Counted from the stretch's first letter, positions 13,706-48,509 are shown. The stretch: 64,000 nucleotides of DNA from Verrucomicrobiota bacterium (GCA_047947115.1 CP170459.1:384001-448000); one strand, 5' to 3'. The notes: generated by a model not told the origin, from the sequence alone. A program made the numbers and translations.

Positions 13706-14205
13706 CCGTTACACAGACTTTTCCCGGTCAAGGTAACAGGAAAAGTTTCTTTTTAGAACAAATTCACCATTTCTCATTTACCTCCTACAGCTTGCATCAG
13801 GTGAGCCAATTCATCCGACACATCTCCCTCAGATTCCACCGTTGCCCTAATTCGCTGAATCAACGACGCACGATATCGCTGCTTCATACGCATGACCCCC
13901 ATTTTGACAGAGGCTTCGGTGATTCCCAATTCCAGCGCCCATTCGGCATACGATCCAGACCCATCACTACCCGACAAGATTCCTTTGAAGGCATTGAAAA
14001 ACTGGTCCTTACCTTCCTTATGATAAACAGCGGACAAGTCGTTTAATGTATCTTCAAGAAGGGTCAGCGCCCATCGACGATCATACAAATCCGACGGGGA
14101 ATTTTGATCGACAGGTTCCAGTGTGTAACGTTCCTCGGCCTGCACGGCGTCCAAGGATAGGATGGCTCGATCCCCGCCGCGCTTCTGCGCTTTTGATCGC
14201 GCATA

Positions 14206-15690
14206 ACAGCCCGTTTAATAAGTGCCAATTTCGAAAAACCGAATGATCCGAATCTCGTCCGGCTTCGATTTCATCAAGCTGCATAATAAAATGGTGGAAA
14301 TCAGTAAAAGGACGGCGGGAGCCATATTTATCGCCCCCTGAGTCATCCATTCGCCAAAAATTATGACAAAAGCAGCCGTCAAAGCGGTAGCGAGGCTCGC
14401 TTCCCAGTTTCTTGGCTTGGCGAGGCCAAAGATTTTCCGCATCAGCAATCCGAGGTTGAATGCTGCGCACTTCAGTGTGTGAATCTTGGTGACATTTTCC
14501 ATTCCCTGGAGCCAGGTTCGACGTCCAGCTCCTGTTTCGCACACATGAGCAAATGTTCGCTCCACAAGTTCGCTTCGTTTTCGACTCAGTCGCTTACCCT
14601 TGACACTCCGAACTCTTCGTCGATTACCACGGAATGCGTGTTCGTAGCTTTCCGGCTTGTCCACCCACTTACGCTTCTTTTGCTTCTTCTCTGGTATGTA
14701 TGTGCGGATACCCCACTGCGTGAGCCGTTCCAACAATGCGTTGCTGTGATATCCCTTGTCCATCACCGCCTCTTCAACGGTCCTTTCTGATTCGATTAAT
14801 TGTAGATTGGCTTCAGCCAAGATGAGGCTCTCAGGCCCCGTGGTTGTATCGCCTTGATCTGCATGTGTGACATGACAAGAAACAATTGCCTCGGTTTCCA
14901 AGTCCACCGAATGTTCAGCCTTATATGCAAGATGTGTGCGCCCATCTTTCATCTTGGTAATGCGGCTGTCCGGATCTGACTTGCTTTGCCATTCTTTGTT
15001 GGAAACTTTCTTCCCCTTGCGCCCTCGGTCGATGCGCTGAATGTCTTCATCACTCGGATTTTCAATGCCTTCTTCTTTGGCCAGTTCACGAAGGTATTCT
15101 TTCCAATCCTCACCCGTCCCTTTGCGCACGATGCTACGCATGGCTGCATTGGCTTCCAGGGTGGTGGCATCAACACCAAGAGTTTTTCCCTTCAAAAGCT
15201 TTTTCTCTTTGAGTTGTTCAAGGACAAAAAGGAAAACCTTGTGAAACACTTCATCGGACAAGCGTTGACGGATAATTGTCATCGATGCGTGAACAGGAGT
15301 TTTCTCTGTCAAACTGATGCCGAGAAATTCACGCAGGCAAAGGCTATCATGACATCTCCATGCGATACCACGTTGACTGTTGAGCCCTTCAAAGTATCCG
15401 ATGAAAATCATCCGGAAATAAATACCGGGCGCAATGCCTGGCCTACCAAAATTCTTGTAAAACGGGGCGCACAACTCTTCGACATAAGCATCAAATCCGC
15501 ACTCATCAAAAACCTGATTGAGTTTGGAATAAAACGGGTGAGCCGGCGTTTTGGGAATCTGATTGGAGGCAATGAACAGTTCTTGCTGTTTCGTTTTCCG
15601 TTTGCCAAGTGCCATGGCAAATACTTTACTTGATCATGTGATCAATCACGAATCTTTTCGTGAAGAATTGTGACTTTTTTAACGGGCTGT
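14206..15690 (-). mobile_element. IS1182/IS5-like insertion sequence, complete
   Basis: Imperfect terminal IRs ACAGCCCGTTtAAtAAGT / ACAGCCCGTTaAAaAAGT; TA duplication at 14204-14205 and 15691-15692 (also readable as TTA/TAA). Confidence 0.9.
14215..15615 (-). CDS. DDE transposase (DUF772-type N-terminus; IS1182/IS5-like)
   Basis: GRPGIAPGIYFRMIFIGYFEGLNSQR, GVDATTLEANA, MDKGY, RSELVERTFAH. Confidence 0.9.
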   Translation of the reverse strand: MALGKRKTKQQELFIASNQIPKTPAHPFYSKLNQVFDECGFDAYVEELCAPFYKNFGRPGIAPGIYFRMIFIGYFEGLNSQRGIAWRCHDSLCLREFLGISLTEKTPVHASMTIIRQRLSDEVFHKVFLFVLEQLKEKKLLKGKTLGVDATTLEANAAMRSIVRKGTGEDWKEYLRELAKEEGIENPSDEDIQRIDRGRKGKKVSNKEWQSKSDPDSRITKMKDGRTHLAYKAEHSVDLETEAIVSCHVTHADQGDTTTGPESLILAEANLQLIESERTVEEAVMDKGYHSNALLERLTQWGIRTYIPEKKQKKRKWVDKPESYEHAFRGNRRRVRSVKGKRLSRKRSELVERTFAHVCETGAGRRTWLQGMENVTKIHTLKCAAFNLGLLMRKIFGLAKPRNWEASLATALTAAFVIIFGEWMTQGAINMAPAVLLLISTILLCSLMKSKPDEIRIIRFFEIGTY

Positions 15691-16095
15691 TAAGCATCGG
15701 CTATATAATGCTGAAAGGAGGCCAGAAGAAATGAGCGAAATCGGCCACGCTCCCGGGATGCCTTGCCAAGTGATTTAAGACGCAACATTTGAGCAAAAAA
15801 ACCCTGCACCAAATCCTCGGACAAATGGGGCGAACATCCCCTTCGCCGAGCAAAGGCATACAAAGGATACCAATACGTTTCACACAAACGCTCCAAAGCA
15901 TCACGAACTGTTGCGGAAGAATCTTCATCCCCCGCCGCAAGCACAACGGTCCATTGAGTTGTAACGAAAGGTTCAAATCGCTCACGAGGGCCAAGCATGT
16001 CCCCAGCATAAGAAAAACGCTCTGACATTTCAAATGCAGAGCGTTCAGGAAATTTGTGATTAAATAATGAGTTTCAATGGTGCCGGTTGATTAGA

Positions 16096-17721
16096 CTATT
16101 TCTTACCTTTTCCGTTTCCGCCAGCATTGCCGCCGGAACCTCCACCGTTGTCATTTCCACCAGAACCACCGCCGGAGCCAGCTGTGCCACCGCCTCCGCC
16201 ACCGCTAGCGCCGGAATCTGCATCGATACGCACATCACGCGAACCACCACCGATGTTACCAGGTTGCGGATCATCAGGCGAACCAGTCTGATCCTGCCAG
16301 GCCCAATCTTGTTGTGTTATCAGACCCAGCTCACCAAGCGGTTCACCGTTGCGGTCAGGATCCGTGTTTTCATCCGTGGCGCGGGTTGGATCAGCGCCAT
16401 GACTTTCGGAAAGGTCATACAGGAATTCTTGCAGCGCTGGCATGATGGAACGGCTGACAGTGGCCATTCCGAACGGCGCAAACGGAACCAGATAGCTATT
16501 GAACTCTCCAGCCCAGTCGATGAGTCGATCACCACCCGTGTTGGCGATCATGATGTCACGACCTGCGCCACCGTAGGCTCTGTCTTCATAAGACGGATGG
16601 GTGTCAGGGATATCATTGAGGCCTCCGTTGGTCTCAAGATTATCATCGACATTCATCAGGTCGTCACCAAATCCACCATAGGTGGTGTCGCGGCCTGTTC
16701 CACCGACCAACCAGTCGTTGCCCAGATCACCAAAGATGATGTCATCACCGTCTGTGGCCACCGGATCATAATTGACACCGTCGGCATAAAGGTCCTGAGG
16801 TCCTTCAAGATGGTTGAAGTTCAGGATAAATTCATCACCCGTCTGGGAGAAGACAAGCACGCCATCAGCGTTTGGAGTCACATAGACCTTCGACTTCGGA
16901 TCGTTTTCATCATATGCTGCAAATTCGACTTCACGACCTGCCACCTCACCCCAGGCAAGATAGTCAACTGGATTGAAAGGTTTGGCAAAATACTGTGGCA
17001 ACGCTTCAGCGCCCGAGATGGCGTCATCACCGGAGCTACCGTGCAAGAAGTCCGAACCCCAACCACCAAATATAATATCGTTGGCGTACTGTGCATCGTA
17101 AAGCACGACATCATCTCCCATAGAGGCAACATCCGCTGGGCCTGCAACGTTGAATGGCGTCAGATTCACAGTCTTCTTCAAGGCGCCTTCCACATTAAGA
17201 ACAGCTTGCTGGAAACCGCCAGGGGTCGAAATTTCCAGGTTCAGTTCAGCTGCAGTAAATCCAGCAACGCCATAAAGAGACTCACCTTCGGTGGAATTCC
17301 TGCTGGTGTAGATCCGTCCGTCATCGCCCAGCACGCCATCCTGACCGGTGCCACCGCTGATCCAGTCATGTCCGTAACCACCGTATAGATCGTCATCCTG
17401 ACCATCACCGAATAGCACGTCATCGCCAACCATGCCGTAGATAACGTCATCACCGGCTTCACCATGGATCTCGTCTGCAGCACCAAGGTTGTTTACTGTG
17501 TTAGGCGCGTCATAGTCGGCGCCACCTGGTGTGTAATCCTGTGCGCCGGTTTCATCGTCACCGATCCATTCATTGCCACGAACCACAACGCGCAGGCCGC
17601 CACGATCCGTGCCGTCAAAATGCACTCCGATGTCGTAGTTGAAGGTCAGGTATTGAGTAGTGCCTTGTGCATCTACAATCTCAACCAAACGGTAGATATT
17701 TCCATTGTCACCGAGTATGTA
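16096..17721 (-). pseudogene. C-terminal remnant of a large RTX/hemolysin-type Ca-binding repeat protein
   Basis: Many GGxGxD-type nonapeptides (GEAGDDVIY, GMVGDDVLF, GGYGHDWIS, GGTGQDGVL, GGWGSDFLH, GGTGRDTTY, GGAGRDIMI). The reading frame runs into the IS end at about 17721; the ORF-track N-terminus is IS sequence. Confidence 0.85.
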
Positions 17722-19412
17722 GTGCCTGAGAGAAAACTCCTCAGTTTTTGAAAATTTCACTGACCGCTGGCGATTCTTGCGGGCGGAAGTCGGAGACACA
17801 CGCCTTGAAGTGCGTGTTTTCCTCCGGAACACATCAAACTATCGTTTTTTTGCCTTTTTTGATCTGAAGATGTACACACCACTTGTGTGATAGGTCTGCT
17901 TGTTAGTGAAAATCTATACCGAGCTTAAGCCGCGTTGGCTTTTTGCTCCGCAGCTTGCCGTTGTTTCTCTATCAAGGCTCACCCGATACGATGCAAATTG
18001 TAAGCCAGCACCCCAAACCCAACATATCGTTTGTACCCTGATAGCCCTTTGTCTGGGCATCGGTTCAGTCCGTGATGCTCCAGTTCATTGATGTTGCTTT
18101 CAATGGCTGCATGTCGTCGCTTGAGTCTTTTAAAGGAGCTGCTGGTTTCACGTTCCTCTTCGACTTTATTGCGTCTTCCTTTTTTGGGCATCACTACCTC
18201 CGGGATCTGCAGCTTCAAATCCTCTAGTTTACTCATGTCACTGAACCCTTTGTCCATGCTCAGCGAATGGATGTTTCCTTCTCCAAAACGATTTACCAGT
18301 CGCAATACCAACGGTTCGAGTTCCTGATTGTCCGTGGTCTTTTCCATGACTTTGTAATCCAATATCAGTCCGTGCTGATCAGTGCTTACTAGGACTTTGT
18401 GTCCCAGTTCAACGGAGGGACGCATCTTGCCCTTGGCGATCCATTCAGTATGGGGTTCGAAGAGCGAAAACACTTTTTCCTCGTGTGGAATAGTCTCTTC
18501 TTTCACGATTCGGCGTTCAACCAAATCAATATGCTTCTCAAGCATTAAGGCAAAATAGCGGATTTTTTCGAGGCAGAGAAAGTGCGTTGGATCCTGGCAG
18601 ACTTTATCCACTCGCCCAATATCTTCAGAGACTTTTGCTCCAAGTTCCTTTGCTTTGCGAAGGTAATTTTTCGCGGCTTTTTCCTGACGCTGATGTCGAT
18701 TCTTGCCACCGCGACTAGACTGCTGAAGCTGGCGCATCAAGCCCTTGATGGTTGTTTTCCAATTTTTGGCTTTACGCCATCCCTCAAGGCCAACCTCCCG
18801 GGCAAGCCAACTCAGTAAGTCGATGCTTTTGCGTGCCGCATCCCACAACAGATTAATATCGGTTGGAAAGTGCACATTGGTCTCAAGAACGTAGCTATCG
18901 GTTTTAACGAGGATTTTTTCGGCGACGTTTTTTTTAGTTCCTTGCGTCCGTGCAAAACCACGATTTCATTGATTTGCCCCAGAAGTTGCTCGTCCACATG
19001 ACAAACATTTTCACTGAGAGTTTTGTGGTGAAAATTTTCCCCACCGGAGGCCACAACGGGCAATCCCATAATCTGTCGCACCAATGAATGGTGATTGGCC
19101 ATATCCTCAAGCCGGTCATAGTCGCAATCCAAAGACATTCGACACACACCCAAAACCAGAATTTGCCACAAATCCATTCCGGGGCGACCGGTGTGCTTCT
19201 TGTTTCCGATTACCTTTTGTTCCAGCAATTCGAAAACCTGTTCGTTGATTTCAGGTGTTGAAAAGATCCACTGCAGAGTGATTTTTACGACGAATATCAG
19301 AGAGAAAATCTCATTTTTCAACAATTTGAATGACAACGTTCCGGGATTCGTTCTCAGAAAACTTCGGAATCCCTTTGCAGACTTGATCATTCTAGTTTTC
19401 AGTCAGGCACTA
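17720..19412 (-). mobile_element. Degenerate ISNCY-type (ISDol1-like) insertion sequence
   Basis: IRs TAGTGCCTGAgaGAAAACT (17720-17738) and AGTTTTCagTCAGGCACTA (19394-19412); boundary hexamers TATGTA and TACGTA are not identical. Confidence 0.85.
17925..19280 (-). pseudogene. ISNCY-type transposase, split and degenerate
   Basis: Frame 1 GRPGMDLWQILVLG...ELKK; -1 shift at an A8 run (18928-18935) into DSYVLETNVHFPTDINLLWD...MDKGF...IESNINELEHHGL. TGA at 17979 with the frame continuing ALIEKQRQAAEQKANAA to TAA at 17925. No recognisable native N-terminus before LQWIFSTPE. Confidence 0.75.
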
Positions 19413-19589
19413 CGTAACCGCCAAAAATCCGCAATATTCACAATTGTTCAATATGGGACATTTTTACTCTCACCCCTCAACATAAATGGCTTCCCTCTAA
19501 AGTTGACTTGGGGAACATTGAAGAAATTTTGGACTGAATCCAGCATGAAAACCCACCACCTAGGAAGAGGAAAAAGGGCCATCCAGAAG

Positions 19590-21539
19590 TCATGACTGAC
19601 CCGAAAAAGACAAGGATTCTTCCAGCCAACGGTCAGCTCGAAGCACGGCCAAACGCTGTTTGTAGGCTCGCCTTTCTGAAATCCACTGCGCAAAATTAAC
19701 CATCCATGGGCGTGGCAACAAGCTACTGAGAGCTGTCATCGGGTATGATTTTTCGCTTCCCTTGAGTGCTCTGACGATGATTTCATCCTCCATGGAAGCA
19801 AACATGCGAGCTGTTCCGGGATCGCCTTGACGTCCGCAGCGTCCGAATAATTGACGATCCACACGACCTGTTTCGTGAGGTTCGGTTGCGATCACATGCA
19901 GTCCTCCAAGAGCGGAAACATCCGGATCCAGCTTGATATCCGTCCCTCTACCAGCCATGTTTGTAGCCACCGTTATCCGGCCTTTTTCCCCCGCTCGAGC
20001 CACAATCATGGCTTCCTCAGAGAGTCGGGTCGCATTCAAAATCTGATATCTCAACCCTGCTTCATCAAGCATTTCACCAATCTTTTCACTGACATGCACG
20101 TTGCGTGTTCCGATCAAAATAGGGCGTCCCTGATGGTGGACAGCTTTGATTTCCTCCATGACCGCATGCCATTTGGAAGCCTCATCAGTCGTAATGACTC
20201 GTTGATGTTGCCTACGTATACAAGGTTTGTTCGAAGGCAGACACACCACCGGCAATTGGTAAATGCGCCACAATTCACGGGCTGATTCCCTGGCCGTACC
20301 TGTCATTCCGGACAATTTGGTGAAACATCGAAAAAATCTCTGAAAACTCATGCGGGCAACTGTTTCGCTGGGATCTGAGGGTTTGAGCCCCTCTTTCACC
20401 TCTATGGCCTGATGCAATCCCTGTCGCCAACTGCGTTGGGGCATTGGACGGCCGGTAAACTCGTCCACAATCACAACTTTACCATCCTGAACAATATATT
20501 GCTTCCCTTTCAGGAAAAACACCCGCCCCACCAGGGCTTGCCGCAGCAATTCTTCACGTCGAGCCTCGCTTTTCCAGATGCCGGGCCAATCATGAGAGAG
20601 CGATTCGATTTTCTGGCGACCGGCTTCGGTGAAATAAATCTCTTTGTAGGTGGACTGAACCGTGTAGTGGTCTCTCTCCGACAATTGACGCACAAGCGCG
20701 TCCGCGTGATAAATCGCTTTTTTCAGGGATTCGTTCGGTCTTGGACTGGATATGATGAGCGGAGTAACGGCCTCATCGATCAAGATACTATCAGCCTCAT
20801 CGACCACAGCCGTATGAATTCCCCTCAACACACCTCGCTGATTCCCCTGCATGCAGGATTGCGTCATTTGCTTCAGGATTCGACGTGATCGGGTGGCTGA
20901 GTCGCGATTTTTCATTTGATCCCGTAGTAAATCCGCCAAAAGTTCCCGACTGGTCGTGTAGGTCACATCGCAGCGATGAGCATCACGACGTTCCTCTTCG
21001 GAAGCCCCTCCCACTACCTTTCCAACCCGAATACGACAAAACTCGTAAAACGGCTCCAACCAGCTGGCATCACGCGCAACCAGGTAGTCATTCACGGTCA
21101 TCACATGAAAAGGCTTGCGGGTCCACCCGATCAGTACGGCAGCCAAACCGGCAGTCAATGTTTTGCCTTCACCGGTTGCCATTTCCACAAGATGTCCGCG
21201 GTTCAGCGCAAGTGCGCCGGCCAACTGTACGACAAAAGCCTTTAATCCAACCGTCCGAAACGCAGCCTCTCGAACGGCTGCAAGAGCCTCTAATTCAGCA
21301 TCATGCTTTGGTCTGCGGAGAAAAACAGAGCGAAATTCAAGTAAAGCCGCCCTCAGTTCATGGTCATTCATCACCTCAAACCTCGGAGCAAGCGCATCAA
21401 CCGCCTCGGCATCTTGGAGCAATTGTCGCCCAATGGCCGAACGGCGCTGATATGCACCCATCCACCCATGCATGACCGAATCCAACCCCCGATACATGGG
21501 GCGTGGCTTTGGAACCTGATAAAACTGATCGGATGCCAT
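19590..21539 (-). CDS. Secondary SecA-like DEAD ATPase lacking the C-terminal wing/scaffold and Zn-binding regions
   Basis: EMATGEGKT, TVNDYLV, DEADSILIDEAVTPLIIS, IVDEFTGR, GLHQAIEVKE, GMTGTA, ATNMAGRGTDI, RQLFGRCGRQGDPG; about 650 aa, ending soon after motif VI. Probable start MASDQ at 21539. Confidence 0.92.
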   Translation of the reverse strand: MASDQFYQVPKPRPMYRGLDSVMHGWMGAYQRRSAIGRQLLQDAEAVDALAPRFEVMNDHELRAALLEFRSVFLRRPKHDAELEALAAVREAAFRTVGLKAFVVQLAGALALNRGHLVEMATGEGKTLTAGLAAVLIGWTRKPFHVMTVNDYLVARDASWLEPFYEFCRIRVGKVVGGASEEERRDAHRCDVTYTTSRELLADLLRDQMKNRDSATRSRRILKQMTQSCMQGNQRGVLRGIHTAVVDEADSILIDEAVTPLIISSPRPNESLKKAIYHADALVRQLSERDHYTVQSTYKEIYFTEAGRQKIESLSHDWPGIWKSEARREELLRQALVGRVFFLKGKQYIVQDGKVVIVDEFTGRPMPQRSWRQGLHQAIEVKEGLKPSDPSETVARMSFQRFFRCFTKLSGMTGTARESARELWRIYQLPVVCLPSNKPCIRRQHQRVITTDEASKWHAVMEEIKAVHHQGRPILIGTRNVHVSEKIGEMLDEAGLRYQILNATRLSEEAMIVARAGEKGRITVATNMAGRGTDIKLDPDVSALGGLHVIATEPHETGRVDRQLFGRCGRQGDPGTARMFASMEDEIIVRALKGSEKSYPMTALSSLLPRPWMVNFAQWISERRAYKQRLAVLRADRWLEESLSFSGQS

Positions 21540-21574
21540 GGTTGAGTGACCGAAATTCAACCGCAAGAAAACGG

Positions 21575-23731
21575 TTACAATTGATACCTTCGCTGGAGTA
21601 ATTGTCTCAATCTCCTGATCCAACACGGCAGGAGAGGCTCGGCTTTTAAGTCAAATCGAATCTTCCCGGATCGACCGTGCAGAAGATGAGCATCACCGGA
21701 ACTTCCCAGTTTGGAGCGCACTTCAAAGAACGGCTCTGCGGTGGTGGCCCCCTGCTCGTCTTCCTGGGTTACCGGAATATCCCCTCCTCCACTCCAGCCA
21801 AGAGCACGTGAAGGCAATTGACGTTTTTCAACCGGAATGATGTCCATCGAGGTCACTTCAATTCCCGCCTCCGCCATACCAAAAAGTCGCACCTCTGAAG
21901 AACCGATTTCGTTGGCAAACAAACGATCCACATCATCCTGCAGCACCGGCGAAATAAACTCAAATCCACCGGGGTGAATCACTCGTCCAAGCGAACTCCC
22001 CCGCACCAGCCAACGCCCGATGACCTGCTCGACTTCCGGAGCCACCCAAATCCCGTCAATGGGTGATTTCATGATCAAATCTTCCTGCCGTTGCTTGAGG
22101 ACCAGTATACGTTCTTCGATGGATTGACGTTGGAAGAGGAGAGGTTTCACATCCACACCGTCAAAACTCATGGCCTGCAACAACTGCATTTTAACTTCGG
22201 ACAAGCGGGCCTCGGCCCGACGCATTTCGAGGCTCAGTTCCGGATTTGAAAGCCTCAGCAGAGGGGTTCCGGCCGTGACCTGAGCTCCGGGTTCTACCAG
22301 CACTTCCATTAAGGTGCCTTCGGTTTGGGAAACCAACTCGGCCCAGTTTTCTGCCGCTACCACACCCGATGCCCGAAAGTGATGAGGCAAAGGCACCAGC
22401 TGAAGGAAAATCAGCAGCACCCCGACAAAACCAAGCGTCACTCCGACGGCTCTGGAACGCACACGGTCCAGTTCGGGGCTGGTGAAGAGATAATAGATCC
22501 ACTTACCCAGCGGTGCAACGATCCAGGAAAACAAACAAATCACAGCCATCACGACACCGATCAACAAAAACCGATCCGCTACAAACAGGAGGATTCCGGT
22601 GAAAACAATGATACGATAAATATGACTCAATATCCCAAAAGTAACCAAAATCGTCTTTTCGGACTTCTTGTCGGTAGGGCTTTTCGAAGTTGCCACACCA
22701 TATGCATGGCGTTTGACCACGTGTTTCAGCTGTCCTGCCGAATGCTGATGCAAATTGGGATAATTCAGCAAATCACAGAGAATGTAATAACCATCAAAAC
22801 GAAGCAACGGATTCAAATTGAACAACAATGTGGAGACCGAGGCGATAAACATCATGTTGTAGGCCAGGTTGTGCACCAGTCCGGCCCCGGTGTTGGCCCA
22901 GACAAAAGTCGCCAAAGCGGCCACAAACACTTCAACAATCATCCCCGCCAATCCAACCAAAGCCCTTTTCCACCGACTGCTGAATCCCCAGCTGGAAGTC
23001 GCATCCACGTAAGGTATGGGGGTGAAAATCATGAGCATGACACCCATCACATGGACTTCACCTCCGAACTTTCGACAAAAGAAGGCATGACCAAATTCAT
23101 GGAGCGTCTTCAAAATGACCAGGCCAGCATAAAGCCAAACAAGGTTGCCGGGAGCCAACAGGGCCTGAGATTCGTCCTTGAGCGCCGGAAAATAATCCAG
23201 CACAACTTTCAACGCTCCCCCTACCGTCAACAGCCAGATCAAAAACCCAAAGGGACTGATCAAAGGTCCGACGATGGGAAGCATCCGCTTCAAGAAGCGA
23301 TCCGGATCCAGCAGCGGAAATCGAATAAACATCAGGTTGAGAAACTTGGATCGGATCTCACGCTGCCGGCGCTGTTGGAAACGACGGAACAATTCCGCGC
23401 TGTCCTCCGGATTCTCATAGTGCAGCAAACCCACCTGGTACAACTGTGCCAGCAAGCGAATGACCGCATCCTGACTTGGAGCTTCATCCGGATTGGTTTC
23501 CAGAGACTCTTCCCACACCTGCTCCACCGTCTTGTCGGGACGCAAGCGGGCGATGAATTCGTAGGCCTGGGGGCGCAGCCGGAAGTACTGGTTGCTCACC
23601 GGATTCTCCAGCACATACCACCGCTCGCCCCGGTGATACTGACGACGCACCCTCACGCTCGAACGCAGATAAATGCGTTGATTCGCGACGCGATGCCAGG
23701 ATTCGCTGAATGTCTGCTGATTATCCGCCAT
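21575..23731 (-). CDS. M50 (site-2) metallopeptidase-like membrane protein fused to an N-terminal PqqD-like domain and a C-terminal HlyD/biotinyl-lipoyl MFP domain
   Basis: HEFGH (HExxH), NLNPLLRFDGYY, multiple TM helices, EVLVEPGAQVTAGTPLLRL lipoyl half-motif, coiled coil, KSPIDG. Confidence 0.85.
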   Translation of the reverse strand: MADNQQTFSESWHRVANQRIYLRSSVRVRRQYHRGERWYVLENPVSNQYFRLRPQAYEFIARLRPDKTVEQVWEESLETNPDEAPSQDAVIRLLAQLYQVGLLHYENPEDSAELFRRFQQRRQREIRSKFLNLMFIRFPLLDPDRFLKRMLPIVGPLISPFGFLIWLLTVGGALKVVLDYFPALKDESQALLAPGNLVWLYAGLVILKTLHEFGHAFFCRKFGGEVHVMGVMLMIFTPIPYVDATSSWGFSSRWKRALVGLAGMIVEVFVAALATFVWANTGAGLVHNLAYNMMFIASVSTLLFNLNPLLRFDGYYILCDLLNYPNLHQHSAGQLKHVVKRHAYGVATSKSPTDKKSEKTILVTFGILSHIYRIIVFTGILLFVADRFLLIGVVMAVICLFSWIVAPLGKWIYYLFTSPELDRVRSRAVGVTLGFVGVLLIFLQLVPLPHHFRASGVVAAENWAELVSQTEGTLMEVLVEPGAQVTAGTPLLRLSNPELSLEMRRAEARLSEVKMQLLQAMSFDGVDVKPLLFQRQSIEERILVLKQRQEDLIMKSPIDGIWVAPEVEQVIGRWLVRGSSLGRVIHPGGFEFISPVLQDDVDRLFANEIGSSEVRLFGMAEAGIEVTSMDIIPVEKRQLPSRALGWSGGGDIPVTQEDEQGATTAEPFFEVRSKLGSSGDAHLLHGRSGKIRFDLKAEPLLPCWIRRLRQLLQRRYQL

Positions 23732-23734
23732 GAT

Positions 23735-25627
23735 TTACCACCAGAAAAACATTCTCAGGAAATCCACCGTGCGATGGGTGAATATGTAGAACAAGCTACG
23801 CTTTCCTGCATTGAGTTTTGCCACTCCGCTCATACCTGGACGGAACCAGGATTCCGGGTTTTCAAGAAAGGCCGTACGGATCAGAAAAACATTCTCGCTG
23901 GTTTTGGTGACCGCCGAAGGCTCCACCCGGTCGATTGAAATCGGAAATTTCTTCTTGGGCTGACTGACAAATGCAATCTCTCCATCGACCGCCCCCAGCA
24001 CATCATCGATATCGCGTTCATTGGCTTCGGCTTCCACATAGAGACGATCAATGCGGGCAATGCGAAAGAGCACTTCGCCTTCCCGAACCGGAGCCCCAAG
24101 CCGCTCCTTCAAATCACCTTCCACCATGATACCGTCTATCGGCGACTTCAAGGTGGCCTGACTGATTCGCCACTGAACCAGTTCCAGCCTGGCCTGGTTC
24201 TGCTCCACGAGAGCTTCCGAAATCCGCATATCCGCCAGTTGGCGGGCGGCTCGGGCTTTTTCAGCCTCACGCTTGAAACGGTTCAAGTCGGCGATGATGG
24301 AGGACTGCTCCAACTCCAGATCATCCGTATCCAGTTTCAGAAGGGCATCCCCCTGATTCACCGGGTCTCCGGCTTCTTTGAAAACTTCCTCGATATAACT
24401 GTCAAAGGGAACGGATTGATAAAAAACCTCGTCGCTCTTCAGGATGAAATTAGCTTCCACACGGTATGGCACCCGAATCAAAATCATCGCCAGGAGACCG
24501 AGAAGAATCAAAATACCGATCAATTTGGAAAGGGTATGCTCCGGCCCGAAAAACTTGGCTCCGAAATCCCGAATTCCATCCTTCATCCGTGCGCCAAACC
24601 AACGGTCCTTGTATTTCAGATCCTGCAAACGATAGCTCAACAGGTCGCAAGGCAATTGAATCTGTTGGACCTCGGTTTCTGCAAATGTGCCAGCCATGCG
24701 CTCCAAAGTGATCACCCCGACCACATCATCCCCTTTGTGCAAGGGAATGGAACAAATGTGTTTGAGATCCTCGGATTTCTGGTACTGAGCATGATCTCTG
24801 GTCAACGGTCCTCCATCCTGTTCGGAGGGAAACACAATGATCTCATTCTGGTCCAGCGCTTCTTCCATGGCGGCTTCCAACAATTGGATGGCTTCCATCT
24901 TTCGATCGAAACGCTCTGTATGACTCATTGCCTGCAAGCGAATACCATCACCCTCCACCCAACCAAGGCTCACCCGTTCACATTGGTGTTTGCCAGCCAT
25001 GGCGTTGCAGAATGCAATCGCAGAAGAGAGAAAAGCCTGTTCGGGAGAAACCTGCGCGACCAGATCCAAAACGCTCGCAATCTTTTGAACGTCGTCCCGG
25101 GCACGGGATGCAGACTGGCGAAGAAGCAGTTGGTTGGGCAATTCGGCCACCAACAACTGTCGCAGCAGCGTATCCCTTGCCTTGGATTCATTGCTACCCT
25201 CTAAAAGACTCACCACCACAAAAGTGTCCCGACTCGCTTTGAGCGGAAGGGAAATGGCCAGAGTAAACTCGGTTGCTCCTGGGGCGTCCGCATCTGCGGA
25301 GAGTGGGCGACACACAACGCCCTCTTTTGTGCAATAATCTGCGGCGCCAGGAACTTGACCGCGGAAAAGGGCCTTGTGCTGATTGTTGGCGTCCGAAGCT
25401 TCCCACTGCGAAAGGCGCTTCCAATTCCCATCACCAGTGGTGGATTTGACCGCCACCATCACCACAGAAGCATGGGAAATGCGACCGATTAAACCCGCAT
25501 AACGCTTCCAAAACTCCACCAGATTGCCCTGCCAGTTGGCGAGAGCTTCCAGTTCCTTGGGTATGCGCTCGAAGAAATCCCCTTCGGGCATGGGTGCCCC
25601 GGAATTGACTTGATCCTCGTCTGCCAC
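23735..25627 (-). CDS. GAF-domain / HlyD-family membrane fusion protein
   Basis: GAF-like segment (RVSLGW...ICSIPLHKGDDVVGVITLER), single TM (LIGILILLGLLAMILIRV), then VPFDSYIEEVFKEAGDPVNQGDALLKL, KSPIDG, FRPGMSGVAK. Confidence 0.82.
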   Translation of the reverse strand: MADEDQVNSGAPMPEGDFFERIPKELEALANWQGNLVEFWKRYAGLIGRISHASVVMVAVKSTTGDGNWKRLSQWEASDANNQHKALFRGQVPGAADYCTKEGVVCRPLSADADAPGATEFTLAISLPLKASRDTFVVVSLLEGSNESKARDTLLRQLLVAELPNQLLLRQSASRARDDVQKIASVLDLVAQVSPEQAFLSSAIAFCNAMAGKHQCERVSLGWVEGDGIRLQAMSHTERFDRKMEAIQLLEAAMEEALDQNEIIVFPSEQDGGPLTRDHAQYQKSEDLKHICSIPLHKGDDVVGVITLERMAGTFAETEVQQIQLPCDLLSYRLQDLKYKDRWFGARMKDGIRDFGAKFFGPEHTLSKLIGILILLGLLAMILIRVPYRVEANFILKSDEVFYQSVPFDSYIEEVFKEAGDPVNQGDALLKLDTDDLELEQSSIIADLNRFKREAEKARAARQLADMRISEALVEQNQARLELVQWRISQATLKSPIDGIMVEGDLKERLGAPVREGEVLFRIARIDRLYVEAEANERDIDDVLGAVDGEIAFVSQPKKKFPISIDRVEPSAVTKTSENVFLIRTAFLENPESWFRPGMSGVAKLNAGKRSLFYIFTHRTVDFLRMFFWW

Positions 25628-25639
25628 AGAAAACCTTCC

Positions 25640-26404
25640 TTAATTGATTTGAACCAAGGCCATCACACCCGGTCTGATTTGTCGTTCCGGATTGTCGATG
25701 ACGACTTTGATACGTAACAACCCACTGGCTGCATCCACTACGGGGGAGATAAAAGTGATCTCACCCGTGACCACTTTATCGAGGTCCTTAAAGGCTCCCT
25801 TGATGGGGAGTTTCTGTCCCTTCTGCAAGTGACCGGCAACATCAAACGGCAAATTGCACACGAACAGAATGCGACTCGTATCCACCAGGCGAATCAAAGG
25901 ATTCCCAACCTTGGTACCTTCCCCGACTTCGTGCTCGAGAAAATCCGCAATCACACCGGAAAACGGGGCAATGACCTGTCTGTCCTTCAGCCTCGCCTGA
26001 GCCAGCTCAAAATCCGCTTTGGCAATCAGGTAATTACCCTCCGCCGTTTCCAACCGTTCAGCACTGACTGAACTGGTTTTTTCAGTGAGCTGTTTGAGAC
26101 GGGCCCATTCCTTCTCGGAAAGATTCATCGCAACCTTTCGACGCTCGACATCCAGGCGCTCAATTTCAGTGGAAAGCTCTACAATCACCTGACCTTTATC
26201 AACTGCATCGCCTTCGTCGAAATAACGGCCGCCAATGACGCCATCATTCGGTGCACCCAAGGTGGAATCCAGAACCGGGTGGGTAATTCCCTCAAACCAT
26301 CCATCCGTTTGAGCCTGTGTGTAAATGCAACTTGCAACCATCAACCAAGCGCCCAAAAGGATGCATGGATGCATGGTTTGCGTAAATGTCCTGCAGTTTT
26401 TCAT
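25640..26404 (-). CDS. RND/HlyD-type periplasmic adaptor (membrane fusion protein)
   Basis: EGDAVDKGQVIVEL, IAPFSGVI, FISPVVDAASG, IRPGVMA; signal-like N-terminus. Start uncertain (26470/26404/26374). Confidence 0.85.
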   Translation of the reverse strand: MKNCRTFTQTMHPCILLGAWLMVASCIYTQAQTDGWFEGITHPVLDSTLGAPNDGVIGGRYFDEGDAVDKGQVIVELSTEIERLDVERRKVAMNLSEKEWARLKQLTEKTSSVSAERLETAEGNYLIAKADFELAQARLKDRQVIAPFSGVIADFLEHEVGEGTKVGNPLIRLVDTSRILFVCNLPFDVAGHLQKGQKLPIKGAFKDLDKVVTGEITFISPVVDAASGLLRIKVVIDNPERQIRPGVMALVQIN

Positions 26405-26470
26405 GTCAAAAATACTCGAATACAATTGGAGCAATCCCATTTCACCTTGGATAAAGCATGCACCCGGCAA

Positions 26471-28168
26471 TCAAGGTTCCTTCGTGGTGGCGCCCAGACG
26501 ATAATAACGGCTCAGGTTCATGCGGTATTTCTGGAACGTGGCGGCATCGATGCCGCTGGCCTCCACCAGAGATCGTGTCTGCTCCGCCAACAATTCCCGA
26601 CTCAATTCCACATTACGCTCCTTAAGGACCGTTCCGGACAAAATCTGCAGCTGAAGCACTGCGCGACGGAACAGCACCTTGGCCATCAGGGATTGGATTT
26701 TAGCTTCCAACAGATCTTCTTCCGTTTCCAACACCTGCTGATTATCCACCGTCCCCACTTCCAAGCGTTCAAGCTGGGTCTTCAACAAATTGTCGTAAAA
26801 GCCGACCACTTTGTCATGGTTGCCCACACTGGAATGGGTGCTTTTCAAATTGTGCAGGGCAGCCTTGATGCCGTTGGACAATTCGGTTTCCATGGATTTC
26901 AACCCCAACTCGGCCTGCTGGACTTCCAACTTAACCGCTTTCAACTCATTCTTGACCCGGCCCCCGCCATCGAGCGGGACACGTAATTCCACACCAACCG
27001 ACCAGGTAACAAAATCACTATTGCTCACGTCGTCGAAGGAATTACCCGCCGAGTCACCCAGACCGTTGTAACCATAATCACCCGTGAGATTTAAATCAGG
27101 TAGACGTTGATTTTTCGCATACTTGAGCCTTACTCGTTGTTTGATGATTTCCCTCTGTTGAGCAAGCAGATCGGGATTCCATTTGTCGGCCTCATACCGG
27201 GCGGCAACAAATGAATAATTTTCAATGCCACTCAACGTGGGACTGTCCACAGAAACCACTCTCTGGTCACTGTTCTCCTGATCATTGGCACTCAGGCTAA
27301 GCAATCGGTTCATGTTTTCGATCACCGCCTGCTCAGCGTCCAACAACTGCGCCTGCCGTTGAGCCAGAGCCGATTCCACCTCCAACACATCGAGAGGTGA
27401 TGCTGATCCGACATTTTGTTTGACCTTGGTGTCATCCAACAAATTTTGAGTGACGGACACACTTTCCGAGAGAAACTGAACCCGCTGCTGTGCGTAATAT
27501 AGATCCCAATAAAGCGTTTCCGCCTGGGTGATCACACGCATGAGTTCGCGGCGATACCCCTGAAAGGCAATGTGCGAATCCTGAGCGGCTATCCGTAAAG
27601 GTGTCATCTCAGCACCCCACGCATTTTTCAGCAAGGGTTGGACCAGAGAAAGCCCGGTGAAGGTCACGAATTCAGCGCCAGGAGGTCGTGTCGTGCCAAA
27701 TATGGAAGAAGATCCTTGCAGATTGTTCTTCAAACGACTGACCGAATACCCCAGCCGCACACGTCCGCCGCCAGGAATAAGAGATTCGATGCCACTGGAA
27801 TACAGGTGGCTTTGCTGATCAAATTCCGCCAAACCGGACAACTGCCGTTCTTGCTGAACCGTATTGGGACGGTCCAAATCCTGATATTGTCCATTGAGAA
27901 CCAGCTCGGGATTGTAAAGCGTGCGTTCGGCATCCAGTCGGCGAAGGCCCACTTCGGTCTGCAAAACAGAAATCTGGATCCGATCGTTCTGATCCAACAC
28001 ACGTTGCAGGTAATCCTCCAAAGTGAGTTCCACAACCGGCTCCGAAGATTCAGCGGCATGCAAGCCAAGGGCAACCCCCATACAAGTCACAGCCAAAAAC
28101 CTAGCTACTCCACATATTTTCCGACCACCGACACGCTGCACGGTCTCCTCTTCCATAAAGGCTTTCAT
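26471..28168 (-). CDS. TolC-family outer membrane efflux protein
   Basis: Signal peptide; LTLEDYLQRVLDQN; SLVQPLLKN; LPDLNLTGDYG; WSVGVELRVPL; two OEP-like helical repeats. Confidence 0.9.
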   Translation of the reverse strand: MKAFMEEETVQRVGGRKICGVARFLAVTCMGVALGLHAAESSEPVVELTLEDYLQRVLDQNDRIQISVLQTEVGLRRLDAERTLYNPELVLNGQYQDLDRPNTVQQERQLSGLAEFDQQSHLYSSGIESLIPGGGRVRLGYSVSRLKNNLQGSSSIFGTTRPPGAEFVTFTGLSLVQPLLKNAWGAEMTPLRIAAQDSHIAFQGYRRELMRVITQAETLYWDLYYAQQRVQFLSESVSVTQNLLDDTKVKQNVGSASPLDVLEVESALAQRQAQLLDAEQAVIENMNRLLSLSANDQENSDQRVVSVDSPTLSGIENYSFVAARYEADKWNPDLLAQQREIIKQRVRLKYAKNQRLPDLNLTGDYGYNGLGDSAGNSFDDVSNSDFVTWSVGVELRVPLDGGGRVKNELKAVKLEVQQAELGLKSMETELSNGIKAALHNLKSTHSSVGNHDKVVGFYDNLLKTQLERLEVGTVDNQQVLETEEDLLEAKIQSLMAKVLFRRAVLQLQILSGTVLKERNVELSRELLAEQTRSLVEASGIDAATFQKYRMNLSRYYRLGATTKEP

Positions 28169-28513: not shown

Positions 28514-30004
28514 ATGATGGATAAATTACTGGTCATTGATGATGAAACGGATGTGAGATATGCGTTCAGGCGCCTCTTCGATTCTCCCGGAATCGAACTA
28601 CGCCTTGCATCCAGTGGAGAAGAGGGATTGCGTGTTCTGAAAGAGTTTCATCCGAACCTGATCGTGATGGATATCCGGATGGAAGGCATGAGTGGTCTGC
28701 AAACACTCCAAGCCATCCGGCAATTCGACACCAAAACCCCGGTCATTCTCATGACTGCCTACGGCGCCACCCAAACAGCCATCGAAGCCATGAAACTGGG
28801 CGCGTATGATTATGTCCTGAAGCCATTTGATGTCCCCAAGCTCCAGAAGCTGATCTACGAAGCCCTCAAGGCCTCGCAGGACATGTCCAAACCCGTTTCC
28901 TTCGAAACCAAGGCGGAATCACTGGACGATGAACTGGGCATGATTGGACGCAGTGAACCGATGCAGCAGGTGTTCAAACTGATTGGACAACTGGCCAATT
29001 CGGACGCCACGGTTTTAATCACCGGCGAAAGCGGAACCGGCAAAGAACTCGTCGCCCGTGCCATTTATCAAAACAGCGCCCGCGCACCACGCTCCTACCT
29101 TGCGATAAATTGCGCGGCCATTCCTGAGAACCTTTTGGAAAGCGAACTGTTTGGCCACGAAAAAGGCAGTTTCACTGGAGCCAACCAAACCCGCATCGGC
29201 AAATTTGAACAATGCCATCAAGGCACCTTGTTTCTTGATGAAATTGGCGACATGTCCTTGCCGACCCAAACCAAAATGCTGCGCGTTCTCCAATCAGGAA
29301 CCTTCGAACGACTCGGCAGCAACAAGCCCGTGGAAGTGGACGTAAGGGTCATCGCTGCCACCAACCAACCACTGGAAGAAGCGGTGGCCGACAGAAAATT
29401 TCGAGAGGATCTTTTTTACCGGCTGAACGTCGTGCGAGTCCAACTTCCTCCCTTGCGGGAACGAAGCGAAGACATCCCATTGCTGGTGCAATACTTCCTC
29501 AGGAAATTTTCAAAACTGTTCGGGCAATCCGGAAAATCAATTAATGAAAATGCCCTGGAAGCCTTGAAACAATACCAATGGCCGGGTAACGTGCGCGAGC
29601 TCGAAAATGTGATCCAGCGTGCCTTCGTGGTGACCAAGGGAGAAACTATTCTGCTGAGTGATTTGCCCAAGGAAATCATTGGAGGAAAGAACACTCCCGC
29701 ATCGTCGAATTCCCATTCCAAGGCATCGGCAGACACCGCCTCCTCAACCTCAGATTCAAAAGCTTTATCCGAAGCTACCCGGACAGAGGGCATTGATCAA
29801 CTGACGGACGCCATGTTCCAGTGGGCACGATCCAATCCGGACCAAGCTCTCATACCGACAGTAGAACGAGAACTTGTCAAACAAGCCCTCAAAGAAACCC
29901 GGGGCAATCAGGTCAAAGCATCCACTCTCCTCGGAATCACCCGCGCCACCCTCCGCAAACGCATCGAGAAATTCAATATCCGCCAGGAGATCAATGTGGA
30001 TTAA
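28514..30004 (+). CDS. Sigma-54-dependent response regulator (NtrC/AtoC family; REC-AAA+-Fis HTH)
   Basis: LVIDDE, VMDIRM (phospho-Asp), GESGTGKE, ESELFGHEKGSFTGA, FLDEIG, WPGNVREL, GNQVKASTLLGITRATL. Confidence 0.93.
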   Translation: MMDKLLVIDDETDVRYAFRRLFDSPGIELRLASSGEEGLRVLKEFHPNLIVMDIRMEGMSGLQTLQAIRQFDTKTPVILMTAYGATQTAIEAMKLGAYDYVLKPFDVPKLQKLIYEALKASQDMSKPVSFETKAESLDDELGMIGRSEPMQQVFKLIGQLANSDATVLITGESGTGKELVARAIYQNSARAPRSYLAINCAAIPENLLESELFGHEKGSFTGANQTRIGKFEQCHQGTLFLDEIGDMSLPTQTKMLRVLQSGTFERLGSNKPVEVDVRVIAATNQPLEEAVADRKFREDLFYRLNVVRVQLPPLRERSEDIPLLVQYFLRKFSKLFGQSGKSINENALEALKQYQWPGNVRELENVIQRAFVVTKGETILLSDLPKEIIGGKNTPASSNSHSKASADTASSTSDSKALSEATRTEGIDQLTDAMFQWARSNPDQALIPTVERELVKQALKETRGNQVKASTLLGITRATLRKRIEKFNIRQEINVD

Positions 30005-46887: not shown

Positions 46888-47030
46888 TCCTCAATGAGTT
46901 ATGAATTTACGACATTTTATCTTAAATCCCGACCTTTTATCCTTTTATTTTCAAAATGTTTCAATTGCTGGTTTATTATTATTTCAATCTCACATTAATA
47001 TCGGATCCACACTGCATTGATTCGTACATC

Positions 47031-48509
47031 ATGATGTCCATTCCTACAGATTTCTACCATCAATGGCGCTCCTCCGCAATGGCGACACACCTACTCAAGG
47101 AGACTTCCGGTCCGGATTTCCCCGAAAGAGTGCTTCACCTGATATGGATGCACCAACGATTTGAAAGCACCCCGTGCACGACCACATGCGGTAAACCGAT
47201 TGAAATCCTTCATCCGGGCTTCTGGAATCATGGGGCCGGACCTGATTTCAGGTCAGCCGTGCTGCGCATCGACGATCAATTATACAAGCACGCCGACATC
47301 GAACTAGATCTCAAGCCATCCTTCTGGCGTTCTCATCGTCATGATCTGAATCCAAACTTCAACAAAGTACGTCTGCATGTCATTTGGGAAGGCGCCATAC
47401 CAGACAATCACCCGTTACCCGTGTTAAGGCTATCGGACTATACGAACGAATCCCAATGCAATCTCATTGAGTGGGCAGGCGATAGTGTGACCGAGTGCTG
47501 GCCTGAGCGCTTATGTGGGCAATGCCGTTCTCCATTGAATCAACTTTCTCCAGAATCCATTCAGGTGTTGGTCCGTCAAGCAGCTTTGCTGCGCCTGAAA
47601 TTGAAGGCAAAACGCATCGAGGAAGACGCCCGCGAAATAGGATATCGCGACGCACTTTGGTTACACTTGTTCAACGGTCTGGGCTACCGAAAAAAATAAT
47701 GGCCCATGAGGCGCCTTTATTATTTGACCGGCAAAATCATGGAGGATCTGGATATGAAAAAACCGGAAGAAACCCGGTTCCTGATGCAATCCAGATTATT
47801 TGGGATTGCCAATTTGATTCCCAAACAGTTCCCCCAACAGCCGCAGAAGGATCACGGTTATATTCGCAAATGCTGGGACGCCTGGTGGCGCGATCGTGAT
47901 ACCTTCGAACAAGATATTCTTCCCAAATGCATGTGGCACATGCAGAGCATTCGCCCGGCAAACCATCCGCTACGACGACTGGCAACGGTCGCGCACTGGA
48001 TGACCGATCCGAATTTCATTCAGAGGATCGAGGAGTGGTTCAACACCCCCATGCAGACACGCATTGCCCAGGAGAAAATGCATGCTCTACTGGGGGATTA
48101 TTCTGATGAATTCTGGTCATGGCATTGGTCCATGACTGGACCCAAGATGAAAACACCCTCCTTCCTGACCGGGGCGGAACGAACCAACGAACTGGTGATC
48201 AACGTGATTCTGCCTTGGCTCCTGGCCAGGTCCGGTTCGGATCCCACGGACGATCACAACGACTTGATCCAGCGCATCAAGCGGCTGTATTCCAACTGGC
48301 CCCGTGCTGCCGATAACGCGTTGCTCAAGATGGCTCGAACGAGGTTGTTAAATGGAAGAAAATGCGGGTGGATACAGTCAGCTGCGGACCAACAGGGTTT
48401 ATTGCAAATACTCGCGGATTTCTGCAGTCACACCAATGCAACGTGCGAACACTGCTTGTTCCCGGAAGTCGTACAGGCCGTGGAAGCGCATATAGCCATC
48501 CCTGAATAA
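47031..48509 (+). pseudogene. DUF2851 family protein with one in-frame stop
   Basis: ERVLHLIW, HPGFWNHGAGPDF, HRHDLNPNF...LHVIW, then GLGYRKK*WPM (TAA 47697-47699) in the same frame as RPANHPLRRLA, NVILP, QQGLLQI...C..C.C. Confidence 0.75.

Follow-up and report, generated by a model that had tools for sequence, protein, structure and literature searches.

How might a bacterium export proteins of many thousand residues with a set of genes that recalls a type I secretion system (T1SS) but contains no ATP-binding cassette (ABC) transporter? This question is raised by a locus in a 64,000-nucleotide stretch of DNA (the window) from a Verrucomicrobiota bacterium (GCA_047947115.1, CP170459.1:384001-448000; host genome G000), in which five tightly packed, intact open reading frames (ORFs) on the minus strand encode, in this order, a TolC-family factor, a short membrane-fusion protein (MFP), a GAF-MFP, a fusion of a Peptidase_M50 domain with an MFP (the M50 fusion), and a SecA-like ATPase (Table 1). 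The evidence supports the view that this set of genes, hereafter the cassette, is a conserved ABC-less TolC/three-MFP/M50/SecA-like module tied to giant cargo. By a modest inclination, we read the operon as a leader-guided, ABC-less exporter of giant proteins bearing an N-terminal LEPR-XLL motif.

We hold the link between the cassette and LEPR-XLL cargo with high confidence. Among the 151 genomes of the order, the cassette—counted at an M50-MFP match of E<1e-100—is present in 40 and a LEPR-8K match in 38; 35 genomes contain both, five the cassette only, three the leader only, and 108 neither, corresponding to a phi of 0.86 for genomes that, as kin, are not independent. At E<=1e-20, 46 of the 151 genomes match; the six weak matches (E 1e-38 to 1e-46) left out of the cassette count are all LEPR-negative. 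The three leader-only genomes are 66-82% complete. In the phylum to which genome G151 belongs, 28 of 121 genomes also have the M50-MFP, as do 63 plasmid records. A giant ORF lies immediately upstream of the cassette in all eight proteobacterial plasmid loci that were read, and seven of these giants carry the leader (five by sequence, two by annotation; the N-terminus of the eighth lies outside the portion read).

The leader comprises approximately 20 residues of the form M-x(5-9)-F-x-L-E-x-L-E-[PQA]-R-[VLI]-L-L-S-[AG]-D and lacks the long hydrophobic core of Sec-type signals. It is invariant in 42 of 42 N-termini out of 77 LEPR matches (mostly long frames), a partly circular count given that the sequences were chosen by the motif; in 30 of 40 N-termini from other genomes, LEPR is preceded by a start codon at a distance of 11-14 codons. 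All five proteobacterial cargo N-termini that were read contain the motif, including a LESR variant preceding DUF4347 in an enterobacterial locus. The first-pass annotation had taken RTX nonapeptides as the mark of the cargo, which is not borne out: the mark common to the giants is the N-terminal leader, and the last ~400 residues are devoid of RTX-like repeats in 10 of 20 giants. The C-termini of 23 giants fall into nine groups (one clipped by a contig end), the largest family accounting for 11 of them, and the type preserved in a gene remnant beside the cassette occurs in 8 of the 151 genomes.

Several features of the giants are recorded in their own right. An unannotated C-terminal module follows the RTX repeats and ends in L-x-L-x(4)-T-V-E-x-x-aromatic (L138, L139, L143, L145, L146, L149, L150, and the giant of the host genome). 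An RFYR-type tail, common on large proteins of the host, terminates 3 of 20 giants (L142, L153, L155), hinting at either a second sorting step or domain swapping. LEPR frames are among the largest bacterial ORFs, with 28,355 (G031:C30), 27,799 (G029:C30), and 20,890 codons (G150:C1:958,944), of which the first two may extend off their contigs.

A candidate reader of the leader is the M50 fusion. Its Pfam assignments to PqqD (E 0.002) and Peptidase_M50 (E 6e-5) are weak, both falling below the Pfam cut-offs; a match to NF041824 (daptide intramembrane metalloprotease) spans residues 22-403 with E 4.9e-54, at 183.9 bits versus an equivalog cut-off of 300. The structure model (pLDDT, i.e., predicted local distance difference test, 83.5) comprises a three-strand, three-helix (beta3-alpha3) recognition element (RRE) of the kind that acts on peptides that are made by the ribosome and modified after translation (RiPPs), followed by a membrane domain and the MFP. 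The zinc-protease residues H211-E212-H215 (HExxH) and N305-P308-D313 (NxxPxxxxDG) are present and form the most conserved columns of the protein, with H211, E212, N305, P308, and D313 invariant in 148 of 148 diverse homologues and H215 kept in 147. This conservation, together with a best match to RRE-fused leader peptidases, lends no support to the initial proposal that the M50-like protein forms the inner-membrane channel. Foldseek and profile searches with the whole fusion as query against solved structures gave only MFP matches among the matches listed, and no RiPP enzymes were detected among the window ORFs scanned by Pfam.

In a complex model of M50 fusion residues 1-345 with zinc and the 36-residue N-terminus of the host's giant, a score of 0.65 was obtained, while the best of three controls reached 0.01; the mark applied is attained by 116 of 157 solved pairs and by 2 of 215 mismatched pairs. 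Contact agreement between runs was at least 68% and the partner pLDDT at least 53. In the model, contacts to RRE residues 48-56 and 92-97 are made by residues 6-11 of the leader, and the interface extends further, to residues 211-215 and 311-313. The complex model supports binding of the leader by the RRE, which we regard as probable, and cleavage of the leader by the M50 fusion appears rather likely as well; in all, the protein resembles a functional leader peptidase of the RRE-fused kind. In the text of the daptide preprint (bioRxiv 10.1101/2023.03.08.531785), RRE-site-2-protease fusions are described beside precursors with the motif ELExMEAP, whose leader is removed by MpaP. The daptide motif resembles the LExLEPR of the giants.

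The fifth gene accounts for the only nucleotide-binding motor of the operon that we could recognize. Its ORF (19590-21626) matches SecA_DEAD, PP_bind, and a P-loop in Pfam, without SecA_SW; ATG 21539 is the likely start, since the resulting 649 residues equal the length of the closest database relatives. The canonical 1,022-aa secA of the host is encoded separately at C1:1.99 Mb, a scan of genome contigs with a single SecA-like protein as query returned only a canonical secA, and the paralogue scores below all SecA2 cut-offs. Its model aligns with residues 14-613 of Bacillus subtilis SecA and 13-663 of Escherichia coli SecA only, retaining NBD1, PPXD, NBD2, the clamp, and the long scaffold helix, where the chain ends. 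According to Dong et al. 2023 (PMC9926265), the substrate of the SecA-SecY complex is driven by the clamp, whereas the two-helix finger is stationary and may guide the chain into SecY; the substrate-moving clamp residues named there (R322, R327, I222/I223; D492, Q521, R525, R528) map to R364, R369, I262/I263, D534, Q563, R567, and R570 of the paralogue. Clamp and nucleotide residues are kept in 113-116 of 116 paralogue homologues. A paralogue-specific N-terminus occurs in 39 of the 151 genomes, always directly after the M50 gene, that is, in 39 of the 40 cassette genomes; the fortieth cassette is situated at a contig edge, and the remaining 111 genomes gave no match. A retained clamp combined with a partial loss of SecY contact fits a motor for a different channel, and we lean slightly towards the paralogue being the export motor. 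Regarding the earlier suggestion that SecA replaces the ABC ATPase, the conserved residues and the position after the M50 gene are in its favour, but cassettes without the paralogue exist.

The operon is no chance arrangement: of the 12 loci read in other members of the order, 11 show the same succession of five genes and one holds the last two only; the five packed, co-oriented genes that had been noticed at first are thus both intact and conserved. The host genome contains one cassette copy. The TolC-family product matches PF02321 (E 2.9e-49), and its counterpart in G033, a genome of the same genus, is 87% identical and occupies the same position. The short MFP exceeds the TIGR01730 cut-off, lacks a long transmembrane (TM) segment by hydropathy, and is likely periplasmic; the GAF-MFP matches PF01590 and PF16576, its TM helix being assigned from hydropathy. 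Overall, MFP and TolC-family factor are recognized at the family level, below the cut-offs of the T1SS-specific TIGR01843/TIGR01844.

That neither an ABC transporter nor a resistance-nodulation-division (RND) permease occurs in the window was also correctly seen in the first-pass annotation: a six-frame motif scan of the window yielded no ABC signature, the sole Walker A motif inside the operon is MATGEGKT, and Pfam found neither transporter type on 41 window ORFs (other ORFs of >100 aa, mostly antisense overlaps, lay outside the scan). An HlyB-type ABC transporter above cut-off was found in 0 of 151 genomes, with seven candidates scored per genome, and neither a PrtD nor a T1SS HlyD above cut-off in the host genome. 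No ABC gene is contained in any of the 30 cassette operons read (12 + 8 + 10); unrelated ABC ATPases lie 2-7 kb off in 2 of the 12 loci.

The locus belongs to the secondary SecA_DEAD set defined in silico by Kamneva, Poudel and Ward 2015 (PMC4452313). According to the text of that paper, these loci comprise SecA_DEAD without SecA_SW, Peptidase_M50-HlyD, GAF-HlyD, HlyD, and sometimes OEP, with no ABC; the present locus likewise has a SecA_DEAD protein without SecA_SW besides canonical secA, M50-HlyD, GAF-HlyD, and HlyD neighbours, and no ABC.

An RTX-repeat remnant after the operon had been reported from the outset and is confirmed; the 578-aa "RTX ORF", however, is in part derived from an insertion sequence (IS) and is a pseudogene stump, because its first ~41 codons belong to the IS end. 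In G033, a 9,012-codon ORF with the LEPR-XLL motif begins ~300 bp past the SecA-like gene, and the remnant shares 91% amino acid and 80% nucleotide identity with residues 8426-8924 of this giant, corresponding to the last ~6% of a ~9,000-aa LEPR-XLL protein. DNA matches between the window and G033 (19595-28034 and 16097-17721) flank a gap, at which ~25.6 kb appear to have been replaced by the 1,693-bp IS. A second copy of the IS resides at C1:737-739 kb, and relative to it the copy at the locus has lost 128 bp at one site and 1 bp at each of two others and carries substitutions; on account of this decay, the event is probably old. On sequence grounds, the adjacent cargo gene is shown to be dead in the host genome. 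Relocation of the deleted middle was ruled out, only the stump matching in the single-contig genome.

The host genome contains only one other RTX protein, an intact, RTX-rich LEPR-XLL giant with 11% Asp encoded by a 7,794-codon frame at C1:2,098,619-2,121,961 (+) (L001, L002). It is the only LEPR-8K match of the genome, its C-terminus is common to intact giants elsewhere, and it is likely the remaining cargo, served in trans from a gene 1.7 Mb away from the cassette. Unlinked cargo is usual in the order: a LEPR match lies within ~20 kb of the cassette in approximately 7 of 35 double-positive genomes, judged by coordinates in assemblies of which many are fragmented. The stump was rejected as the displaced end of this giant, with which it shares only 22-35% repeat-level identity; moreover, the giant has its own conserved C-terminus and no significant match to that of G033.

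Table 1. Features of the cassette and the adjoining cargo remnant (positions counted from the first nucleotide of the window).
Feature	Position	Strand	Remarks
TolC-family outer-membrane factor (OEP)	26471..28168	-	565 aa; N-terminal hydrophobic signal-like segment
Short MFP	25640..26470	-	HlyD_3/HlyD_D23 (Pfam); likely ATG 26404
GAF-MFP	23735..25627	-	630 aa; GAF domain(s) + 1 TM helix 366-384 + MFP
RRE (PqqD-like) + Peptidase_M50 (site-2 zinc protease) + MFP	21575..23731	-	718 aa
Truncated SecA paralogue	19590..21539	-	649 aa from ATG 21539; 678 aa from GTG 21626
Decayed DDE insertion sequence	17720..19412	-	DDE_Tnp_1 (Pfam); 1,693 bp; terminal inverted repeats
3' stump of LEPR-XLL giant gene, pseudogene	16096..17721	-	~540 codons; RTX repeats; Gly-rich tail

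If the operon is a leader-guided exporter, the following course can be envisaged. The cargo starts, as its sequence shows, with the ~20-residue leader without a Sec-type core; the L-E-x-L of this leader would pair with strand 3 and helix 3 of the RRE and its R-V-L-L-S would enter the zinc site, as predicted by the complex model, whereupon the site-2 protease would cut the leader off in the way MpaP processes daptides. The SecA paralogue, docked on the membrane proteins of the cassette rather than on SecY, would hold the unfolded chain in its clamp and move it N-terminus first through an inner-membrane pore, for which, by our guess, the TM helices of the M50 and GAF fusions may oligomerize. The three MFPs would span the periplasm to TolC and, outside, Ca2+-driven folding of the acidic repeats would ratchet the chain. 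A one-step route via TolC seems to us evenly balanced between true and false.

Several observations weigh against this reading. A LEPR match is absent in the five cassette-only genomes. The paralogue has lost the two-helix finger, the wing domain, and the C-tail, and differs at two helix-8 substrate-contact positions (the equivalents of N178 and F182). We know of no site-2 protease that serves as a protein channel, and no pore component was identified in the cassette. RRE-leader complexes have already been solved, and likeness to them may in part explain why the complex model passes. The host genome does possess an ABC-MFP-TolC operon (C1:4,156,930-4,161,574; L156), 3.7 Mb from the cassette, and in 1 of the 12 loci (G149) an ABC exporter gene is divergent from tolC. 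A search of the plasmid sequences showed that three of the eight plasmids are without any SecA_DEAD; the IS-flanked cassette of E. coli H6 comprises a 4,459-aa cargo, TolC, two MFPs, and the M50-MFP, with only the housekeeping SecA on the chromosome; and genome G270 holds canonical SecA only. Finally, the finding that two LEPRxLL giants of Chlorobium chlorochromatii occur outside the producing cell and reach the partner cell counts in favour of export, but the preprint reporting it, which also notes a recently acquired secA, proposes in its text a C-terminus-first export with a periplasmic stage (bioRxiv 10.64898/2026.03.19.712371).

In 10 planctomycete-phylum loci, the paralogue is adjacent in six, elsewhere in the genome in three—at the giant gene's far end in G159—and was not found in one (G270). 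The cassettes L186:2382-22133, L094, L092, and L093 consist of TolC, MFPs, and the RRE-M50-MFP with neither an ABC nor a SecA paralogue, and adjoin DUF4347/cadherin or LEPR giants. In E. coli and Citrobacter, SecA-less cassettes are mobile and flanked by IS, and the cassette gene occurs in 24 of 5,426 E. coli genomes. Since such versions exist, the invariant core is formed by gate, adaptors, and leader. As a separate observation, DUF3467 and SapC genes frequently accompany the cassette in other phyla (L088, L089, L091, L092, L095, L177); DUF3467 has no match in the host genome.

These points bear unequally on the competing explanations. The missing pore, the cassettes without a SecA paralogue, and the periplasmic stage of the Chlorobium preprint all suit a two-step scheme, in which the leader and the RRE-protease, together with either the paralogue or the housekeeping SecA, would deliver the chain via SecYEG to the periplasm, with MFPs and TolC serving the outer step only; the RFYR-type tails would also suit it if they are taken as sorting tails. 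We judge this scheme unlikely, as the paralogue is devoid of the finger that inserts into SecY, the leader is devoid of a hydrophobic core, and the protein that would read the leader includes an MFP in its own chain, linking the cytoplasmic step with the TolC tunnel. An analogue of the T1SS, with a SecA-like protein and an M50 pore in place of the ABC transporter and a C-terminal RTX-type signal to pick the cargo, is what the first-pass annotation and Kamneva 2015 would lead one to expect; the parts list is identical, RTX repeats are found in both the local remnant and the 7,794-aa giant, and one C-terminal family covers 11 of 23 giants. The diversity of the C-termini, half of which are free of RTX-like repeats, the restriction of the remnant-type C-terminus to just eight genomes, and the fact that it is the protease residues that are most conserved in the M50 fusion render this account improbable.

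Smaller still is the chance that the cassette is an accessory maturation or adaptor set borrowing an ABC exporter encoded elsewhere. SecA-less cassettes do require some energy source, an exporter gene stands beside tolC in one locus, and the ABC of the host's separate operon has T1SS-type best matches; these are, however, weak (171 bits versus a cut-off of 693), this ABC occurs in 10 of 151 genomes and in just 5 of the 38 LEPR-positive ones, and neither HlyB-type transporters above cut-off nor ABC genes within cassette operons were encountered in the sets surveyed. About equally remote is a function in signalling or quality control, i.e., GAF sensing coupled to regulated intramembrane proteolysis of the giant N-terminus without bulk export. 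GAF domains and site-2 proteases are indeed signalling-typical, and only the GAF gene was expressed during exponential growth of M. extorquens AM1, as stated in the text of Kamneva 2015 (PMC4452313); nonetheless, many phyla keep TolC, the three MFPs, and a SecA motor that retains the clamp as one set, and no further export signal is present in the giants. We return to leader-guided export. Its most far-reaching form remains tentative, falling somewhat short of an even chance: a new Gram-negative secretion class would combine a RiPP-like leader, an RRE-site-2-protease-MFP gate, a finger-less SecA working off SecY, and one-step TolC export of proteins of 4,000-28,000 residues, with LEPR-XLL (including the LESR variant before DUF4347) as the signal peptide of the system and the gate, not the motor, as its core, as the SecA-less versions would indicate.

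Neighbouring genes were considered as further parts of the system. The divergent sigma-54 regulator (28514-30004) and the genes for extracytoplasmic function (ECF) sigma factor and kinase below 16,050 were ruled out, as they show no synteny in G033. The ECF sigma factor gene (13774-16028, -) is interrupted by an IS1182-like element (14215-15615), of which the host genome holds ~11 near-identical full copies, and a Ser/Thr kinase-WD40 gene follows. A DUF2851 gene (46956-48509, +) is split into two consecutive ORFs (model positions 1-187 and 205-357), probably by a frameshift or stop.

Compared with known systems, the cassette shares with T1SSs (HlyB-HlyD-TolC; LapB-LapC-LapE) the MFP, TolC, and a giant, acidic, Ca2+-binding repeat cargo without Sec signal; it differs by the lack of an ABC transporter, by three MFPs, and by a common signal that is N-terminal rather than C-terminal. 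The uncleaved C-terminal secretion signals of T1SSs are poorly conserved, and T1SS export takes a single step with no intermediate in the periplasm. A T1SS has a cognate ABC transporter of the HlyB/PrtD/LapB type, none of which is found in the locus or, above cut-off, in the genome; by definition, the cassette is therefore not a T1SS, though by analogy it would work like a leader-dependent one. In the colicin V CvaAB-TolC type, a peptidase-containing ABC exporter acts with an MFP and TolC, and the transporter-linked peptidase reads and cuts an N-terminal leader. The predicted logic of the cassette is the same, with an RRE and zinc site-2 protease in place of C39, a SecA-type motor in place of ABC, and a cargo of 4,000-28,000 aa where that type carries small peptides. 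Daptide MpaP (NF041824) likewise has an RRE fused to a site-2 protease and a similar leader motif, whereas the cassette fusion carries an additional C-terminal MFP, is unaccompanied by RiPP enzymes, has a giant substrate, and scores 184 versus 300 bits. SecA2-only and SecA2/SecY2 systems also employ a second SecA for special, often very large, substrates; in contrast to these, the paralogue has neither two-helix finger nor wing and no SecY2, its partners being MFPs and TolC.

The idea of SecA as ATPase and M50 as candidate pore is not new, having been proposed by Kamneva 2015, in whose text cargo, leader, and RRE are not named. West-Roberts 2023 describes, in the part concerned, wing-less SecA domains within other giant proteins, and a Vibrio paper merely names a LEPR-XLL giant in its text. 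In the open-licence PMC and bioRxiv literature, taken without the supplements of the preprints and of Kamneva 2015, no paper was found that connects LEPR leader, RRE, and cassette. New here are the cargo deletion, the co-occurrence with the leader, the leader-peptidase reading of the M50 fusion, and the finger-less, clamp-retaining SecA.

The locus is of interest in that its adjacent cargo has been naturally lost while the machine is intact and one unlinked, tagged giant remains. The leader/RRE prediction turns the 2015 hypothesis into one that is testable by means of a 20-residue tag and point mutants. If true, it would reveal how the largest bacterial proteins are exported and what serves as their signal peptide; it would also provide a SecA motor independent of SecY and a RiPP-type leader system repurposed for protein secretion, and a tag by which very large proteins can be secreted might eventually be derived from it.

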